DNA from: Terriglobales bacterium
GTDB lineage: Bacteria > Acidobacteriota > Terriglobia > Terriglobales > Acidobacteriaceae
Length of the DNA: 28,247 nucleotides
Reading direction: 5' to 3'
Assembly (NCBI GenBank): GCA_038253455.1
Contig: JBBSHD010000001.1
Location: 1-28,247, forward strand
The notes beneath the pieces are model-generated. The model had not been told where the DNA came from. It did no database searches and was given only the letters and a program-made list of their open reading frames with translations. Positions 5,502 to 11,728 of this stretch are shown in pieces; position 1 is the first letter of the stretch, and the number at the start of each line of letters is the position of its first letter. The position numbers and the translations under genes are program-made.

Positions 5502-8500
5502 CTAACGCGGAGCAGCCTGCGGCTGACTTCCCTCGGTGATCTCGAAGTATGAGGGCTTTAAGGTAACCGAAGATTCGGGATTGTAATAATCGTAGAGCAG
5601 TGACGGCGCGGTCTGGGCCTGCATGGCAAATCGCGGGCGGAATTTAAAGGTAAGATCCGATCCGCCGGCGCTCGGCCACAGGTAAAGAATGACGCGGTCG
5701 GGCAGCACGTCGTACCGGTACAGCGAGGTGTTTCCCTTGAGCGCAAGTTCAAGGCTTTCGCGATCGACCTCCGCTCCGGGAGGCAATCCCACTTCACCCA
5801 GCATCATTCCATAGCCGCGGTAGCCAAGGCGCTCGGTTCGCACGCGGCATTCAATTTTGTCTCCGGTTGTGGCCCGGGTTGAGGAGTAGCCCACGTCCAG
5901 CTTCAACGTGCTGAGCGAGTGGACCTCGGTTTTTACTACCGGACCCGCATCGTGCGGCCATTCCACATAAGATTCCACCACAAATTGCGCGCTGATCATG
6001 CCTTCGCTGGGCAAAGCAAGGTCGACCTGATTCTCACCGGCTTTTACGAATTGCGAAACATCCACTTCAATAGGCGGAGTCACATCCCGTCCCGGCGGCA
6101 GGTCGATGGCGGCCGCGGCGTTGTGATTGACCACCACGGAAAGCCTGGAGCCGGGGCCGATCGCTCGCGGAGTGACGAGCTTCAACAGCGTTTTGAGGAC
6201 GTGCACCGTGGTCTGGCCGGAAAACCACATGCCATCTTTCGCTTCATTGCGCAGAAGAAAAATCAGGCCTTGCCGAATCAGCTCCTCGTCGGACGCGCTC
6301 TTGGTCCCGGCGGCGGTGAGCGCGCGCAAAACTTCGGCGGTCGATTCCACACGCCCTGCGGCGCCCCAAACGTAGAACGGCGTATTACGTTCGAGTTGCC
6401 AGTAGGCTGCATTGTTTTCATAGTGCACGCTGGCGCGCAACCCATCAACCAGTCTGGCAAAGGTCTTATCGTCGCCGGCCGCTTTGGCCGCCAGGGCATA
6501 GTTTGCGATCACATAGGGCTCGTCGATCAGGCTGGAGTGCGCGGCCAGAAACGCGAGTGCTTTTTGGCGCGCCGGCGGCACAGCGGGCTGTGGCCCTTTG
6601 GGTTCCTCGAGTTCGTCCAAGCCCTGCGCAACGTATGCGGTTTGCATAGTCGCGTTCTTATCGCTTTTGTCGTAATGTCCACGCCATGAGCCGTCTTTTT
6701 CCTGCTGCGCCAACAGCCAATGTTGAGCCTTGAGACTCACATCGGCATCCACGTCGATCAAGCTCCCCGCATGATGCAGGAACTCGAGCGCGTATCTGGT
6801 CAAAGCAGTATCAGGATTTCCCGTTCCCCAGTAGGTAAATCCGCCTGAAAGATCCTGGTAGCGCAGCAGGCGTTCGTATCCTGCCTGCAGATAACGCCGC
6901 GCCTTCAAGGCTATGGGAGGCTTCTTTGCCGACTTCTCATAAATCTCGGTGACCAGCAGGCTGGGATAGGTCGAAGAGATGGTCTGCTCGCCGCATCCAT
7001 TTGGCCTTTCGAGACCAGCCTCAAGGTTTTCGATCACGTGTGCCAGCAGGTTGGGATACACCTTCACCTTTGCGCGAATTGTTCCCGCGATCGTATCTGG
7101 AGGTAATTGCAGGGTCAGGGCGCCTGTCTTCTGCATGACCGTGCTTGCGGTCGCGGAAGCGGGCCTTCCGAAAGGATGAACGTCCACCGGCTTCTGGGCG
7201 GCATCACTGATTTCCGCGTTGGCCGCTCCCACCTGCTGCTTGCCTCCGGTAATCGCGGCCGTAACCCGGTAGCGGAAGATGGCGCGTCCGGCGTCTCCGG
7301 CGGCCACCGTGACCGGCACTTCAGAGGGGCCGATTGATTGAAACCACGTAGCCGGTTTTATCCAGGCTTTGAGGGTCTGCGCACGCTCGAGATAGTTGCG
7401 CAGCACGACGGGATACGCAATCACATCTCCCTGGGTAAGAATTCGGGGCGGGTCGTGCTCGATAAAGAATGGCTGAAACGCACGCAGGTTTTTCTCGGCC
7501 GTACCAAACTCTCCGGTCTTGGTGGACGCGAACGCGGTAAGCTTCCAGTTGGTAATGCTATCCGCCAGCTTGAAGTTGAGCCTGGTCCTTCCGTGACTGT
7601 CGGTAATTACAGCCGGCTCCCAAAGCATGGTCTCGGGAAAATCCTCACGCAGCCGGGGCGTGCTCAGCGCCATTCCCGGCGCCGCACCCTTAGCCATTCC
7701 GGGCGGAAGTCTGGTGAGCGGCAGGGAGTGGAGAGATTCACTCGAAATCGCCGAGCTGGTGGTCTCCAGGAGAGGGGACACCGCCGTAACTTCGACGGTC
7801 TCGGAAGCAGCCCCGATGGAAAGCTGCAGATTGACATCAGTCACCACTTGCCCCTGGACCGGCACGGCAGACAATGTCAAGGACTGAAAGGCGGGGGCGT
7901 TGCACACCAACTTATAAATCCCCGGCTTCAGATTTATCAGTTCAAACCTACCGTCTTCATTGGTTTTGACAGTGGTCGTCGCGCCGCCGCCGTCGCGTAT
8001 GGCTTCGACAGTCGCATCGACGATCACCGCGCCGGTGGGATCAGTCACCGTGCCTGTTATGGCGCCGTCGCCTGCGATCAAATTTATTTTTTTCTGGGGG
8101 ACCGACTTCTGATCATGCGATCCCTGCCCTGAAAGGAGCACCGTATAAGCCGCGACCTGGAAATCGTCATTTGTGTCCTGAGTCTTGTCCATGCCCGCGC
8201 TCATCACCCGGACTTCTTTACGGATGAGCGTTACCGGCTCGGTCACGCGCCTGCCCGTAACCGAAGTTTGCTGGATGGTCACTCGATCGCCGTACTCGGC
8301 TGCCTTCTTGAAAATGATGTAGTAAGCAGTTCCCCACGGATCGCGCAGTTCGCCGAGATCGACTCCCGCTTTGCGCAACATGCTTCGGATTTCTGCTTCG
8401 TTTTCGGGATATCGGCCGACGGAACGCAGATGCGCGGCCAGCACCTGCTCGAAGTGCTGGCGAGTTGTAGCGAAGTAATCCACCTGGGTTTGCCATACGA

Positions 8501-11453
8501 CTTCGCCATCGCTCTTCTTCTTGTCCTGCGGATCTTCTCCGTGACTAACGATCTGGGTCAGGAACACAGACCCTTTTACAAGGAAATTTGTTTCGTAAGG
8601 TTTCCTCCAGGGATCGCGTAGCGAATCAATATCCACACCCTTCTTCAACATCTCCCCGCGCAAGGTGCTGCGATCGCGGATGAAGCGCCCCTGCTTCTCC
8701 ATCAGGTCTTTGGAGACATTCTCCAGGATGTTGCCGTAATAGAGAAAAAATTTCTGGCTCAAAGTCTGGGCAATGAAGTCGTCGGCCGTGCCCGGCGTCT
8801 TATCGGGCCCGGCGGAATGCGCCTTCACGAAATACTGGTCGCCCGCAAATCCTGTTTCGTAGCGGTACGGGGTGCCCCAGGGATCGCGCAAACCCTGCAG
8901 GTCGATGCCATCTTCCTTCGCCAGTTCGGCCAGCTCGGCTTCGTTGTGCGGCTGTTGGTTGCGTTCATTCCAGCGCTGCAGCGCCTTGTCGAGCGCCTGG
9001 AATTGCTCGGTCAGTCTTGGTCCAAAGACCGCGTCGGCGGTACGGTGGGCCTCGTCTCCCAATAGCTCTGTATCCCGGCTTCCATTGCGTAGGAGATATT
9101 CCGCCAATAGATCCAGATCGTGAGGCACCGGTTGATCCAGGTCAATTTGGTCGAGGTCCTCTCGGGAGACCCCGGCGAAAGTGGAGTGGTATCTTCCCGA
9201 AAACAATGCCCAGGGCCAGCTTCCGCTGGATTGGCCTCCAAAATCGCGGTCAGTGCGGGAGCGCTCTTCCACCGCAGTGTCCACGATCTTCACACCCAGT
9301 GCACTCTCGGCCCCGGTCTGGTCGGGGGCGTGAACTGCAAAGCGCACGCTGGCGGCCTCTCCGGGCCGGTGCTCATCTTTATCAAACTGTACATTGATCT
9401 CCAGCCGCCGGTTTCTGGGAAACAAAACCCTCACCGACTGTTCAAGATAGCTGTAAGGCGAGATTCGCTCCTCCAGTGAATATGCAGTGATATTAATTTC
9501 ATCGGTGAATCGCTGGTCATAAGGAAATACCACGTAAGCCCGGCCGTTGCGGAGCCGAACCTGTTGCCGGCCCAGCGCCACTCCTTCGCGCGACGCTTCT
9601 ACGACTGCCCGAAGATCTGTCTTATTGCTGCGCAGCGTCACCTCGATGTCTTCCTCTTTTTTGTGGATGGTGTGTGAAGTGGTAATTTCCAAGCCGGTGG
9701 TATGGTCATCCCCTTGATAATGGAATGTCTTGTAACTGCCTCCCAGTCCTTTCTGATCACTCGCCTCGAACACCAGCGAATCCCTTCCCTTCGGGGTTAT
9801 GAGAAGCCCCGTCACTTTCGCTAAACCATAACGATTGGTTTCCAATGTACGTAGTAGTTGTTTCTTTGACGGGTCGTCGCGATTCGTCAGGCTTAGCCGC
9901 ACCTTGCAGCGCGCGGGCTCGCCATCGGCATAAAACGTCGAAACATAGTAGGCATCCGCCGCATATGCTTCGAGTGAGCCGGCCTCGATCGCATAGACGT
10001 GAATGGGATCCCGGGTCACCCGCAAAGAAAATCGCCGCTGCTCGGTGTGCCCGGTAGTCAGATCGGTCACGTATGCCGCCAGATCCAGATCGCGAAAATT
10101 AGCGGGCTCCTCGCCCGTCTCCGACAGCGCGTCTCTGGTGGGTGTGAGGTCAAAGCGCGCCGTGAAGTGGCCGTCCCGATCGAGGGTTCCGGTTTGCACC
10201 TGGTCTTCCCTGGTTTCCCACTCCTGCTTGCGATAATTCCACTTTCTGTCTTTTTCTGCGACCACCCTGACCCGGCCCCGGGTTACCGGCTGGTTGAACA
10301 AATATTCCGCTGAGACCAACACCTCGGCATTCTGCCTGGGCAGGTAGTAAGGATGGTCGGGCTTGGCCGTGACCTTGAAATTGGGAAGGTCATAGCGGTA
10401 GATATGTACTGATTTCGAGGCGGTATTCTGGCGGCGGCTGTCATCATCTTTTTCCGCGCTCACCGCGACCCGATATTGACCCAGCAAGACGTTTGCCGGA
10501 ATCTCCCAATCGAAGTGCGCGACTCCGAACGCGTCGGTGGTAACGGTTTGACTCGAAACCAGCGTATTTTCCTCATCGGTGACGCGTACGTCCAAAGGTT
10601 GCCTGGGGAGAGCCCGGCGCCCGGAGTCGAACAGCAATACCCGGGCATGCAGAGTCTGTCCGGGCTGGTAGATGTCCTTGTCGGTGTCAAGCAGCAGGAT
10701 GTTTGCCGAACGAAATTCGACGGTATTGTCCAATGACCGGACGATGAGCCCGCGTTGCGCCTGCACGGTCAAGTCACCTGAGCTGGCTGGCGCCGTGGCC
10801 GGAATGAAGAACCGCAGGCTCCCATCGCCGGCGCTATTGGTTACGACGGTAGAAACAAGTTTCTGCTCACCGTTTTGTGCGTCCCAGGTAATCATGCCGC
10901 GAACGGTGGCACCGCGCAAGGGAGCTCCGGCGCTGTTGCTGGTGTGCACCGGGACTTCATACCAGCGCCCCGCACCGGTCACCCTGCCGGCAGCCGCCGT
11001 CAGCACAAACTGATCGGTCTCCGGGGAGTGTAGAGACTCGATCCCGGAGGCGAGTATCTCGCCCGTCCTGGTGCGAACTTCATATTGCAGTCGCAGCCAT
11101 TCCACCTCATTCGCCTGTCCGGGCTGGACATTGGCAAAAGGCTTGTCGAGTCTGAACACCAGCTGCTTCTGCCGGCGAGCAGGATTTACCTCGGTAGCCG
11201 CAGACGCGATGATCACATCCCCGGGGTTCAATAGCTGGAGTTTTACCTGCAGGGGATTAGTCTCGCCGATGGGAGAAGCGAATTGCAGCGTAAGGGTCAG
11301 TACGTCCTGACGCACGCCAATTTGGGCGATGTACTTTGGGTCTTTGGGAACCGGCTGGGCATGCATTGTTCCTGCACTCCCCAACCCCAAAAGAAGCAGG
11401 ACAACTCCGAAAGTAAAGCGGGCATGCGAACGAAGGGGTGTTCGTAGATTCAT
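5502..11453 (-). CDS. Alpha-2-macroglobulin family protein with inserted GspG-like repeats and a carboxypeptidase-regulatory-like domain
   Basis: Signal peptide from ATG 11453 (MNLRTP..VLLLLGLGSAGTMHA|Q); MG2 motif LLDTDKDIYQPGQTL; LREDFPETMLWEP..LADSITNW; thioester GCGEQ (CGEQ at 6995-6984); receptor-binding-type C-terminus (GLPPGAEVD..LYDYYNPE). Confidence 0.92.
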   Translation of the reverse strand: MNLRTPLRSHARFTFGVVLLLLGLGSAGTMHAQPVPKDPKYIAQIGVRQDVLTLTLQFASPIGETNPLQVKLQLLNPGDVIIASAATEVNPARRQKQLVFRLDKPFANVQPGQANEVEWLRLQYEVRTRTGEILASGIESLHSPETDQFVLTAAAGRVTGAGRWYEVPVHTSNSAGAPLRGATVRGMITWDAQNGEQKLVSTVVTNSAGDGSLRFFIPATAPASSGDLTVQAQRGLIVRSLDNTVEFRSANILLLDTDKDIYQPGQTLHARVLLFDSGRRALPRQPLDVRVTDEENTLVSSQTVTTDAFGVAHFDWEIPANVLLGQYRVAVSAEKDDDSRRQNTASKSVHIYRYDLPNFKVTAKPDHPYYLPRQNAEVLVSAEYLFNQPVTRGRVRVVAEKDRKWNYRKQEWETREDQVQTGTLDRDGHFTARFDLTPTRDALSETGEEPANFRDLDLAAYVTDLTTGHTEQRRFSLRVTRDPIHVYAIEAGSLEAYAADAYYVSTFYADGEPARCKVRLSLTNRDDPSKKQLLRTLETNRYGLAKVTGLLITPKGRDSLVFEASDQKGLGGSYKTFHYQGDDHTTGLEITTSHTIHKKEEDIEVTLRSNKTDLRAVVEASREGVALGRQQVRLRNGRAYVVFPYDQRFTDEINITAYSLEERISPYSYLEQSVRVLFPRNRRLEINVQFDKDEHRPGEAASVRFAVHAPDQTGAESALGVKIVDTAVEERSRTDRDFGGQSSGSWPWALFSGRYHSTFAGVSREDLDQIDLDQPVPHDLDLLAEYLLRNGSRDTELLGDEAHRTADAVFGPRLTEQFQALDKALQRWNERNQQPHNEAELAELAKEDGIDLQGLRDPWGTPYRYETGFAGDQYFVKAHSAGPDKTPGTADDFIAQTLSQKFFLYYGNILENVSKDLMEKQGRFIRDRSTLRGEMLKKGVDIDSLRDPWRKPYETNFLVKGSVFLTQIVSHGEDPQDKKKSDGEVVWQTQVDYFATTRQHFEQVLAAHLRSVGRYPENEAEIRSMLRKAGVDLGELRDPWGTAYYIIFKKAAEYGDRVTIQQTSVTGRRVTEPVTLIRKEVRVMSAGMDKTQDTNDDFQVAAYTVLLSGQGSHDQKSVPQKKINLIAGDGAITGTVTDPTGAVIVDATVEAIRDGGGATTTVKTNEDGRFELINLKPGIYKLVCNAPAFQSLTLSAVPVQGQVVTDVNLQLSIGAASETVEVTAVSPLLETTSSAISSESLHSLPLTRLPPGMAKGAAPGMALSTPRLREDFPETMLWEPAVITDSHGRTRLNFKLADSITNWKLTAFASTKTGEFGTAEKNLRAFQPFFIEHDPPRILTQGDVIAYPVVLRNYLERAQTLKAWIKPATWFQSIGPSEVPVTVAAGDAGRAIFRYRVTAAITGGKQQVGAANAEISDAAQKPVDVHPFGRPASATASTVMQKTGALTLQLPPDTIAGTIRAKVKVYPNLLAHVIENLEAGLERPNGCGEQTISSTYPSLLVTEIYEKSAKKPPIALKARRYLQAGYERLLRYQDLSGGFTYWGTGNPDTALTRYALEFLHHAGSLIDVDADVSLKAQHWLLAQQEKDGSWRGHYDKSDKNATMQTAYVAQGLDELEEPKGPQPAVPPARQKALAFLAAHSSLIDEPYVIANYALAAKAAGDDKTFARLVDGLRASVHYENNAAYWQLERNTPFYVWGAAGRVESTAEVLRALTAAGTKSASDEELIRQGLIFLLRNEAKDGMWFSGQTTVHVLKTLLKLVTPRAIGPGSRLSVVVNHNAAAAIDLPPGRDVTPPIEVDVSQFVKAGENQVDLALPSEGMISAQFVVESYVEWPHDAGPVVKTEVHSLSTLKLDVGYSSTRATTGDKIECRVRTERLGYRGYGMMLGEVGLPPGAEVDRESLELALKGNTSLYRYDVLPDRVILYLWPSAGGSDLTFKFRPRFAMQAQTAPSLLYDYYNPESSVTLKPSYFEITEGSQPQAAPR

Positions 11454-11728
11454 TTCCGGGCGCCGATCGAACTGCGCTGATGCTAGCACGCACCAGCGTA
11501 CGCCCAACATCGAAACCGGCGGCCAGGGCTGGTTGAAAACAATCGCCGGGAAACGCGGGTTAAATCGGGAGCGGGGCATGAGCGGCATTAACTTTCCACT
11601 GATCTTGCGGACGTCGAAACTCAAAGCGATAAATTCGGGTCACAGGGACCACTGGACTTTTCCCCAGGTGGTTGTTCTCCCGGCGGCACGTTCAAGCCTT
11701 ACAATAATCAACAAGGAGTTTAACCATC

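Follow-up and report, generated by a model that had tools for sequence, protein, structure and literature searches.

The closest solved relatives of the protein described here are human A2M, A2ML1, CD109 and C5. The first three have the same set of domains in the same order (MG2, MG3, A2M_BRD, A2M, a thioester domain (TED) with CGEQ, and a receptor-binding-type domain), carry a bait-region domain (BRD) within MG6, and are its best matches in both sequence and fold. In the complement proteins C3, C4 and C5, a folded anaphylatoxin (ANA) domain, which is a small helical bundle, occupies the same insertion point, before the segment that aligns with the N-terminus of the alpha' chain. The human BRD has 127 residues and little regular structure (PMC9181621), and bacterial BRDs are smaller than eukaryotic ones (2026 review, PMC12939704). 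The bacterial A2Ms of the ECAM/YfhM type and of Salmonella are likewise thioester protease traps that combine MG domains with a BRD.

GspG, the pseudopilin of type II secretion, provides the other comparison. The calcium ligands of PulG are D117, S122, D124 and D125 (PMC13081927, which treats the PulG and OutG ligands). Without calcium PulG is disordered and degraded, while OutG is stable, and a variable loop of genuine GspG tunes the specificity of secretion (PMC13081927). We show here that a bacterial alpha-2-macroglobulin (A2M) carries three tandem domains related to the GspG head within its BRD.

Results

A secreted A2M of the eukaryote-like type

The window (the whole stretch of DNA that was analysed, 28,247 nucleotides) encodes a secreted thioester (CGEQ) A2M of the eukaryote-like type (Table 1). 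Amino acid positions of domains, repeats and DPW motifs are numbered along the open frame 11624 to 5502 (-). The Pfam matches to MG2, MG3 (25.8 bits), A2M_BRD and A2M all exceed their cut-offs, and their order is canonical for the family. They are matches to the eukaryote-type models, the bacterial bMG3 model staying under its cut-off. Foldseek with a 786-aa model returned only A2M and complement chains, ECAM (5a42) being among the fold matches, but the alignments are global over these proteins and hence uninformative on the insert. The thioester motif of the homologues is CGEQ in 81 and CAEQ in 27, and none was found in 12. The signal-peptide-like N-terminus (MNLR...) also opens a homologue that is 88% identical (P0003); the database gene call begins downstream of the ATG chosen here, at M87. 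A direct reading shows that the N-terminal 90 residues lack Cys, and the protein is thus not a lipoprotein. It differs from the ECAM/YfhM type by having neither a lipobox Cys nor a pbpC (PBP1c) neighbour. We infer that the product is a secreted, thioester-bearing protease trap of the A2M type.

Table 1. Features of the A2M gene, from the N-terminus to the C-terminus of its product.
Feature	Position (nt)	Strand	Basis and remarks
Alpha-2-macroglobulin gene	5502..11453	(-)	ORF list and translation; 1983 aa, starting at the ATG (open-frame residue 58)
Predicted Sec signal peptide MNLRTPLRSHARFTFGVVLLLLGLGSAGTMHA	11358..11453	(-)	Direct sequence reading; putative cleavage site
MG2 domain, aa 314-399	10428..10685	(-)	Pfam PF01835, E 1.1e-20, 74.2 bits
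A2M_BRD, aa 645-785 (MG5/MG6 first half, into BRD)	9270..9692	(-)	Pfam PF07703, 30.8 bits; beta strands in model
Linker A, aa 786-861	9042..9269	(-)	AF2 model: short helices and two low-confidence stretches; conservation like folded domains
GspG-like repeat 1, aa 862-955, 94 aa, DPW nt 8885	8760..9041	(-)	Ca-ligand positions D941, T946, D948, D949 conserved
GspG-like repeat 2, aa 956-1047, 92 aa, DPW nt 8615	8484..8759	(-)	hhalign to repeat 1; Ca loop degenerate, SDGE instead of xDDF
GspG-like repeat 3, aa 1048-1165, 118 aa, DPW nt 8342	8130..8483	(-)	hhalign to repeat 1; Ca loop conserved
CarboxypepD_reg beta-sandwich, aa 1189-1268	7821..8060	(-)	Pfam PF13620, E 1.3e-19
Linker B, aa 1269-1321	7662..7820	(-)	Disordered, pLDDT 28-36; length 42-91 aa across homologues
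A2M domain, aa 1322-1418, begins TPRLREDFPETMLW	7371..7661	(-)	Pfam PF00207, 73.7 bits
Thioester domain, aa 1528-1813	6186..7043	(-)	Pfam PF07678 (TED_complement), E 1.8e-29, 103 bits
GCGEQ thioester motif, aa 1543-1547	6984-6998	(-)	CGEQ from aa 1544
A2M receptor-binding-type C-terminal domain, aa 1939-2020	5565..5810	(-)	Pfam PF07677 (A2M_recep), 32 bits vs cut-off 21.7

Three tandem repeats related to the GspG head

The initial annotation had reported three tandem repeats of ~90 residues at 8155-9000, built around DPW motifs and similar to the C-terminal domain of GspG. The three copies are there, although their true span is slightly wider (8130-9041) and the third is longer, being extended in the model by a beta-hairpin of ~30 residues. 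In the translated frame DPW begins at residues 914, 1004 and 1095, so that the nucleotide starts and the spacings of 270 and 273 nt given earlier are exact, and the helix and the S.G.D...GT.DD-type motifs around each DPW are present as quoted. By profile comparison, the three repeats are contiguous and mutually homologous far beyond chance: hhalign gives 99.5% probability for repeat 1 against repeat 2 (E 1.2e-22) and again against repeat 3 (E 7.5e-23). The suggested survey of repeat number, made with a repeat HMM on 120 homologues, found three copies end to end in 118 of them and four in the other 2; among the genome loci the copy number is 1, 3 or 4.

The match to GspG is clearest in repeat 1, which passes the Pfam T2SSG cut-off (PF08334; 22.1-26.2 bits, cut-off 21) over profile positions 17-100 of 108, positions 1-16 being unmatched, as do 12 of 18 of its orthologues taken alone. 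Its own profile matches the solved GspG and PulG over the whole head domain (E 3.4e-7 and 8.5e-7), with 83 of 92 positions aligned, helix included as well as loop. Repeats 2 and 3, taken singly, have no Pfam match in this protein (1 of 19 orthologues for each). Their best PDB profile matches, PulG for repeat 2 (E 0.08) and GspG 3g20 for repeat 3 (E 0.012), are weak, and it is their homology to repeat 1 that ties them to GspG. In the structural search PulG and EpsG are the two best matches, and the leading places are taken by pilins and pseudopilins. Foldseek with the three-repeat model gave nothing at E <= 0.001, its leading rows (Hsp70) being judged spurious, and an ESM feature search landed on GspG clusters (0.88-0.89), a result that we treat as no more than a lead.

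The modelled repeat has a long helix, a short helix and three strands, with the calcium loop ahead of the last strand. This helix-helix-three-strand order is common to GspG, PulG and EpsG, as are the T2SSG head profile (PDB 3g20, 1t92, 5wda), DPWG.PY and the S.G.D...T.DD calcium loop. Because the models are alpha/beta and not MG beta-sandwiches, the repeats do not map onto ordinary MG domains, an identity that is thereby ruled out. The proposed likeness to GspG holds. The confidence of the three-repeat model (pLDDT 91, pTM 0.79) suggests that the copies hold a fixed arrangement relative to each other. Unlike GspG, the repeats are internal, tandem, outside any gsp operon, and devoid of a prepilin leader or hydrophobic N-terminal helix (across aa 781-1340 the Kyte-Doolittle value of 19-residue windows never exceeds 1.8). 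The missing helix means that they are not pseudopilins, and a domain with neither leader nor helix cannot polymerise as a pilus subunit.

The positions equivalent to the PulG calcium ligands are kept in 83-85 of 85 sequences for repeat 1 and in 80-81 of 85 for repeat 3. The set is degenerate in repeat 2, which has G1040 in this protein. Such near-invariance suggests that repeats 1 and 3 may bind calcium, and the GspG-like copies are probably stabilised by Ca2+.

An insert within the bait-region domain

The initial annotation had put the repeats after the MG domains and ahead of the thioester domain, close to the bait region. Alignments to human A2M and to the start of the C3 and C5 alpha' chains agree and sharpen this to the inside of the BRD. 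The repeats lie just N-terminal of the segment aligned by phmmer to human A2M 728-821, TPRLREDFPET aligning from residue 728 onward. The start of the A2M domain also aligns (phmmer) to C5 759-849 and to residue 16 of the C3 alpha' chain. E729-R732 of human A2M make up BRD region IV (PMC9181621). By alignment, then, the A2M-domain start corresponds in human A2M to BRD region IV and the second half of MG6, and in C3 and C5 to the N-terminus of the alpha' chains.

The stretch equivalent to the BRD has ~540 residues and four folded domains, in a bacterial protein with a predicted Sec signal peptide, which sets it apart from metazoan A2Ms. Where complement has ANA, it has three GspG-like alpha/beta head domains and a beta-sandwich, with no releasing processing site seen. 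ANATO was not matched in the Pfam scan of the protein, and the two inserts share position only. As in C3, the cut would presumably fall between the insert and the alpha'-like segment. The conservation of the repeats equals that of the MG6 part, and linker B is the most variable segment among homologues, in sequence and in length. The pLDDT is below 50 over aa 1279-1332. Model, alignment and variability together place a flexible segment just ahead of the second half of MG6, as is expected of a bait in the A2M family, and linker B is probably the true scissile bait.

The sandwich has a relative in the same genome, a CarboxypepD_reg-OMP-barrel protein whose residues 32-158 align to aa 1187-1313 with 38% identity over 128 aa. 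The first ~45 residues of linker B resemble the stretch after CarboxypepD_reg in TonB-receptor-like proteins (alignment to L045). What the insert shares is the N-terminus of an acidobacterial CarboxypepD_reg-TonB-dependent-receptor-like outer-membrane protein, including the ETVEV...LE.TS segment past the sandwich. The A2M has this module alone, without the barrel.

Distribution and genome context

Many Acidobacteria share this layout of the insert. The multi-repeat form makes about 180 clusters at 50% identity, in common soil bacteria. Related A2Ms are graded, from one GspG-like domain, to one with CarboxypepD_reg, to three or four with CarboxypepD_reg, and all keep the GCxEQ motif. The search for the one-repeat form gave 10 matches, including one MAG labelled Armatimonadetes, which are too few to define a taxonomic range. 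The search of representatives was saturated by multi-repeat A2Ms and did not reveal the nearest non-A2M relatives. Databases name the family only 'MG2 domain-containing protein'. In the literature searched we found no description of an A2M with pseudopilin heads inserted, in agreement with the initial annotation, whose author did not recognise it as a described A2M architecture.

The neighbouring genes are thrS, a peroxiredoxin, a DsbA-like gene and an AAA ATPase. None is a gsp gene, and the sole T2SSG match in the genome (82% complete) is the A2M itself, no genuine GspG being found. No neighbours conserved across families were found. Two recurring genes, one upstream for a DPP-IV-type peptidase and one downstream for an Slt transglycosylase, were considered as functional partners and rejected, since they recur only inside one taxonomic family (f31), and neither in the window nor in other families.

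Discussion

We lean, if slightly, towards reading this protein as an A2M-type trap with an expanded BRD, in which the folded array serves as plug or spacer and linker B as bait. The BRD, which like that of human A2M sits within MG6, would have expanded from about 100 residues to about 540. The insert runs from three GspG-type heads lacking the membrane helix, through a CarboxypepD_reg sandwich and its trailing segment, which presumably originated as a copy of the N-terminus of a TonB-dependent-receptor-like protein, to a disordered and hypervariable linker directly adjoining the conserved STPRLR(E/D)xFPET segment. A protease cutting in linker B would free the N-terminus of the MG6b, or alpha'-like, segment. 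The body would then rearrange as in A2M and C3 and expose the CGEQ thioester, ready for covalent capture. The four-domain array fills the slot of the anaphylatoxin domain of C3, C4 and C5. Its most likely role there is that of a rigid plug or spacer, which would keep the native state in place or shield it while presenting the bait, and after cleavage the array would remain on the N-terminal fragment. What the analysis shows is which domains are present, in what order and where, how well they are conserved, and that the linker is disordered; where cleavage falls, whether calcium is bound, the plug role and the trapping are deduced. The function of the array would be that of a folded extension of the bait domain, and not that of a proven decoy.

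The initial annotation proposed that the repeats act as decoys or adaptors, which is speculative. On this line, the array might instead be a module of recognition or decoy, recruiting prey to the bait or anchoring the trap by contacts with partners such as proteases or exoproteins that touch pseudopili or pili, or components of the cell surface or matrix. Repeats as constrained as the core domains, with surface-exposed DPWG.PY and calcium-loop motifs that are near invariant, would fit this role, as would a copy number of 1, 3 or 4 depending on lineage, which is common among binding modules, and the GspG loop that tunes secretion specificity (PMC13081927). Yet the invariant motifs are those that stabilise the GspG fold, so that their conservation needs no ligand. 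Nothing indicates a partner either, as neighbouring genes are not conserved across families and the 82%-complete genome has no other gene of T2SSG type. We consider this role unlikely.

A still less likely role is suggested by the position of the array, which is that of the anaphylatoxin domain. Low Ca2+ would unfold the heads, as it does PulG, and expose them to proteases, making the trap calcium-sensitive or the array itself the bait: the whole 400-residue insert would then be a conditional bait or a released fragment like C3a and C5a. The conserved ligands of repeats 1 and 3 and the fate of calcium-free PulG (PMC13081927) are consistent with this, and the low-confidence flanks in the model (aa 849-861 and 1279-1332) mean that a double cut could free the array. 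However, calcium binding is itself deduced from these residues, and the stability of calcium-free OutG (PMC13081927) makes the motif no predictor of lability. Moreover, linker A is not hypervariable, and no C3-like processing motif was seen. It seems equally improbable to us that the array is functional in its own right and no passive spacer, as a calcium-dependent recognition surface mimicking pseudopili or pili so as to lure particular proteases secreted by competitors, or as a C3a/C5a-like fragment released upon activation. Were the released fragment true, this would be a bacterial thioester protein with an independently evolved, complement-like 'activation fragment'.

Finally, it is very unlikely that the repeats form a family without pseudopilin ancestry, in which an unrelated alpha/beta domain happens to share the calcium-loop and DPW motif, given that the profile alignments to T2SSG, GspG and PulG extend over nearly the whole head, helix included, that most repeat 1 sequences pass T2SSG alone, that the order of secondary structures is that of GspG, and that pilins and pseudopilins head the structural matches.

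In A2M, complement and TEP proteins alike, activation works by way of a single small region lodged in MG6. In the present protein it has recruited folded domains of two unrelated envelope machines, the pseudopilin head of type II secretion and the N-terminus of a TonB receptor, and within the lineage the copy number is graded from one through three to four. Such recruitment parallels the insertion of anaphylatoxin in complement. It may provide a natural experiment on the amount of cargo that the activation switch can bear, and on whether the cargo tunes specificity. It also indicates that a pilin head can be soluble and occur in tandem copies.

Results

An A2M with an intact thioester and a Sec signal

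The largest frame in the window (11624->5502, minus strand) encodes an alpha-2-macroglobulin (A2M) with an intact thioester motif and a Sec signal (Table). Translation most likely begins with the ATG of residue 58 (nt 11453), which yields the N-terminus MNLRTPLRSHARFTFGVVLLLLGLGSAGTMHA, a predicted Sec-type signal without cysteine; an 88%-identical homologue has a matching N-terminus. The database gene call (1954 aa) starts at M87 and cuts off the signal peptide (window 11358-11624). Among solved structures, sequence similarity is highest to human A2M, A2ML1, CD109 and C5, and a fold search with a 786-aa model retrieves the family that comprises C3/C4/C5, CD109, A2M, TEP1 and ECAM. Judged by its sequence, in which every testable feature is present, the protein can be assigned to the A2M/TEP family. 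The adjoining genes are thrS and those for a peroxiredoxin, a DsbA-like protein and an AAA_2-family ATPase; pbpC is absent among the neighbours in the window, and the neighbourhood yields no functional clue.

Features of the A2M gene, with residues numbered along the open frame 11624->5502
Feature	Position	Strand	Basis
MG2	aa 314-399	(-)	Pfam
MG3		(-)	Pfam
A2M_BRD	aa 645-785	(-)	Pfam
Repeat 1	aa 862-955	(-)	around DPW nt 8885
T2SSG	aa 874-948	(-)	Pfam, 26.2 bits, cut-off 21
Repeat 2	aa 956-1047	(-)	around DPW nt 8615
Repeat 3	aa 1048-1165	(-)	around DPW nt 8342
CarboxypepD_reg	aa 1189-1268	(-)	Pfam
CarboxypepD_reg and linker start	window 7662-8060	(-)	match to TonB-receptor-like protein L045:306-3773:+ (G000:C81)
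A2M domain	aa 1332-1418	(-)	Pfam
TED_complement	aa 1528-1813	(-)	Pfam
Thioester motif GCGEQ	aa 1543-1547	(-)	sequence
A2M_recep	aa 1939-2020	(-)	Pfam

Three old repeats in the bait-region equivalent

The DPW motif singled out in the initial annotation does recur at residues 914, 1004 and 1095, with the claimed spacings of 270 and 273 nt. The three repeats together span nt 8130-9041 and align at 22-39% identity. When profiles were built with orthologous copies from 18-19 other genomes, repeat 1 matched repeat 2 (E 1.2e-22) and repeat 3 (E 7.5e-23), both at 99.5% probability. The repeat is thus real and old, and chance recurrence of a motif does not account for it.

The repeats had been placed between the MG domains and the thioester domain, near the bait, and we can now locate them within the equivalent of the bait-region domain. 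The segment TPRLREDFPETMLW, starting at residue 1322, aligns to human A2M 728-821, to C5 759-849 directly after C5a, and to residue 16 of the C3 alpha' chain. The 127-residue bait-region domain (BRD) of human A2M is inserted between MG6 strands 4 and 5 and ends with region IV, E729-R732 (PMC9181621). The stretch from the end of A2M_BRD to residue 1322 is therefore the BRD equivalent; it has about 540 residues, against 66-127 elsewhere (PMC12939704), and bacterial BRDs are described as smaller than eukaryotic ones in a 2026 review (PMC12939704). The 786-aa model (overall pLDDT 78) runs from MG strands through a few short helices, the three repeats, a CarboxypepD_reg sandwich and a low-pLDDT stretch back to MG strands; in this model the BRD carries a folded four-domain array.

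A disordered, hypervariable linker directly precedes the conserved region-IV-like segment. Residues 1279-1332 (54 residues) have a pLDDT of about 30, and across 85 homologues the linker ranges from 42 to 91 residues and is the least conserved of all segments: its mean majority frequency is 0.38, whereas the repeats reach 0.52-0.54 and the A2M domain 0.78. Such variability would be expected of a bait. CarboxypepD_reg and the first ~45 linker residues share 38% identity over 128 aa with the N-terminal part of a CarboxypepD_reg-OMP_b-brl_4 protein encoded elsewhere in this genome, which indicates that they were copied from a TonB-receptor-like gene. At least nine paralogous N-termini of this type occur in the source genome, and the linker of some homologues retains an LPxNGRN..L..L.PG-like stretch.

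Pseudopilin-head-like domains

The proposed likeness to GspG was borne out, as repeat 1 by itself scores 22.1 bits over positions 17-100 of the 108 in the Pfam T2SSG profile, above the threshold, which 12 of 18 of its orthologues also pass. Its profile matches GspG (3g20, E 3.4e-7), PulG (1t92, 8.5e-7; 5wda, 3.4e-6) and other GspG/EpsG chains in the PDB. Repeats 2 and 3 are more diverged: neither alone gives a T2SSG match in the window protein, only 1/19 orthologues does so for each, and their top PDB profile matches are GspG/PulG at E 0.08 and 0.012, respectively. An AlphaFold2 model of the three repeats (19 sequences; pLDDT 91, pTM 0.79) gives each unit a long helix, a short helix and three strands, with a long hairpin extension in repeat 3. 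Foldseek with this model found no significant match, and an ESM-feature search reaches GspG clusters at 0.88-0.89, a lead only.

The calcium ligands of PulG/OutG are D117, S/T122, D125 and possibly D124 (PMC13081927), whose counterparts in repeat 1, by the profile-PDB alignment, are D941, T946, D948 and D949. These putative ligands are retained in repeat 1 of 83-85 of 85 family members and in repeat 3 of 80-81; in repeat 2 they are partly retained (48-55), and the window protein has G1040 there.

All the features by which a pseudopilin serves as a pilus subunit are lacking. The repeats have no leader peptide, the hydrophobic N-terminal helix is absent (residues 781-1340 contain no hydrophobic window), and no gsp genes lie beside the A2M gene. 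They are therefore pseudopilin-head-like domains, not pseudopilins, and for want of that helix and operon context the protein lies outside the GspG family. This 82%-complete genome has no second T2SSG match.

Distribution and copy number

The insert retrieves 240 protein clusters (90% identity; 1.1-3.6 kaa), nearly all with the same Pfam set and annotated merely as 'MG2 domain-containing' or 'alpha-2-macroglobulin family'; those named are Acidobacteriota (Pyrinomonadaceae, Blastocatellia, Sulfotelmatobacter, Acidoferrum, Angelobacter). The repeat 1 profile finds 180 representatives (50% clusters) at E <= 1e-30. In the survey of repeat number called for initially, run with a repeat HMM, 118 of 120 homologues had three contiguous repeats and the other two had four. 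Among 401 genomes of the phylum, an A2M-family gene occurs in 206, and the three-repeat insert is matched (E <= 1e-5) in only 21 (16/228 genera). One genome has three paralogous three-repeat genes on one strand within about 20 kb (G089:C64:2374-20212; L011, L023, L026), which suggests local gene-family expansion.

In related, more distant A2Ms of ~1600 aa, 40-70 residues separate a lone GspG-like domain from FPET; those of ~1800 aa have one such domain plus CarboxypepD_reg, and the series continues with three- and four-repeat forms, GC(G/A/F)EQ being kept throughout. The series suggests that the older state was a single GspG-like head in the bait position and that tandem duplication came later. 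The thioester motif varies between subfamilies (loci L027-L030, L032-L034 and L036, all one-repeat, and L035): three-repeat forms have GCGEQ or GCAEQ, one-repeat forms GCFEQ and a four-repeat form GCAEQ.

No neighbouring gene is conserved past one taxonomic family. In one acidobacterial family (f31), a DPP-IV/S9 peptidase gene lies directly upstream of the three-repeat A2M gene on the same strand (L037:5831-8092:+; L038, L040, L042) and an Slt-type transglycosylase gene downstream, an arrangement absent from the window and from other families.

A 2027-aa acidobacterial A2M (L031:1368-7448:+, in G256:C18:20300-28000) lacks both GspG-like repeats and CarboxypepD_reg in the stretch from A2M_BRD to FPET; its residues 975-1340, about 360, instead hold roughly six strongly hydrophobic, transmembrane-like segments. 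It would be most unusual for a soluble trap to carry an insert that spans a membrane where the bait should be. P0227 (4137 aa) has 24 matches to the repeat profile, all confined to its 21-residue Ca-loop part, and may consist of calcium-binding loops in an array unrelated to the repeats.

Discussion

On balance, we think it probable that linker cleavage triggers the protein. Proteases would cut the hypervariable linker, and the freed MG6b/alpha'-like N-terminus would let the protein rearrange as A2M and C3 do, so that the thioester becomes exposed. The array would be a rigid plug or spacer, stabilised by Ca2+, and would fill the place taken in C3 by the anaphylatoxin domain, which shares only its position with the insert.

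The array might alternatively be a recognition or decoy module, which seems unlikely. A calcium-conditional or releasable bait fragment is a further reading, and we consider it quite doubtful. That the GspG similarity is superficial is highly improbable, the repeat 1 profile aligning to GspG/PulG across 83 of 92 positions, long helix included.

The architecture had seemed unfamiliar, and our literature search found no paper describing an A2M with pseudopilin-like domains. The sequences point to a known family, A2M/TEP, in what would be a new form, with a pseudopilin-head-like array in its BRD.
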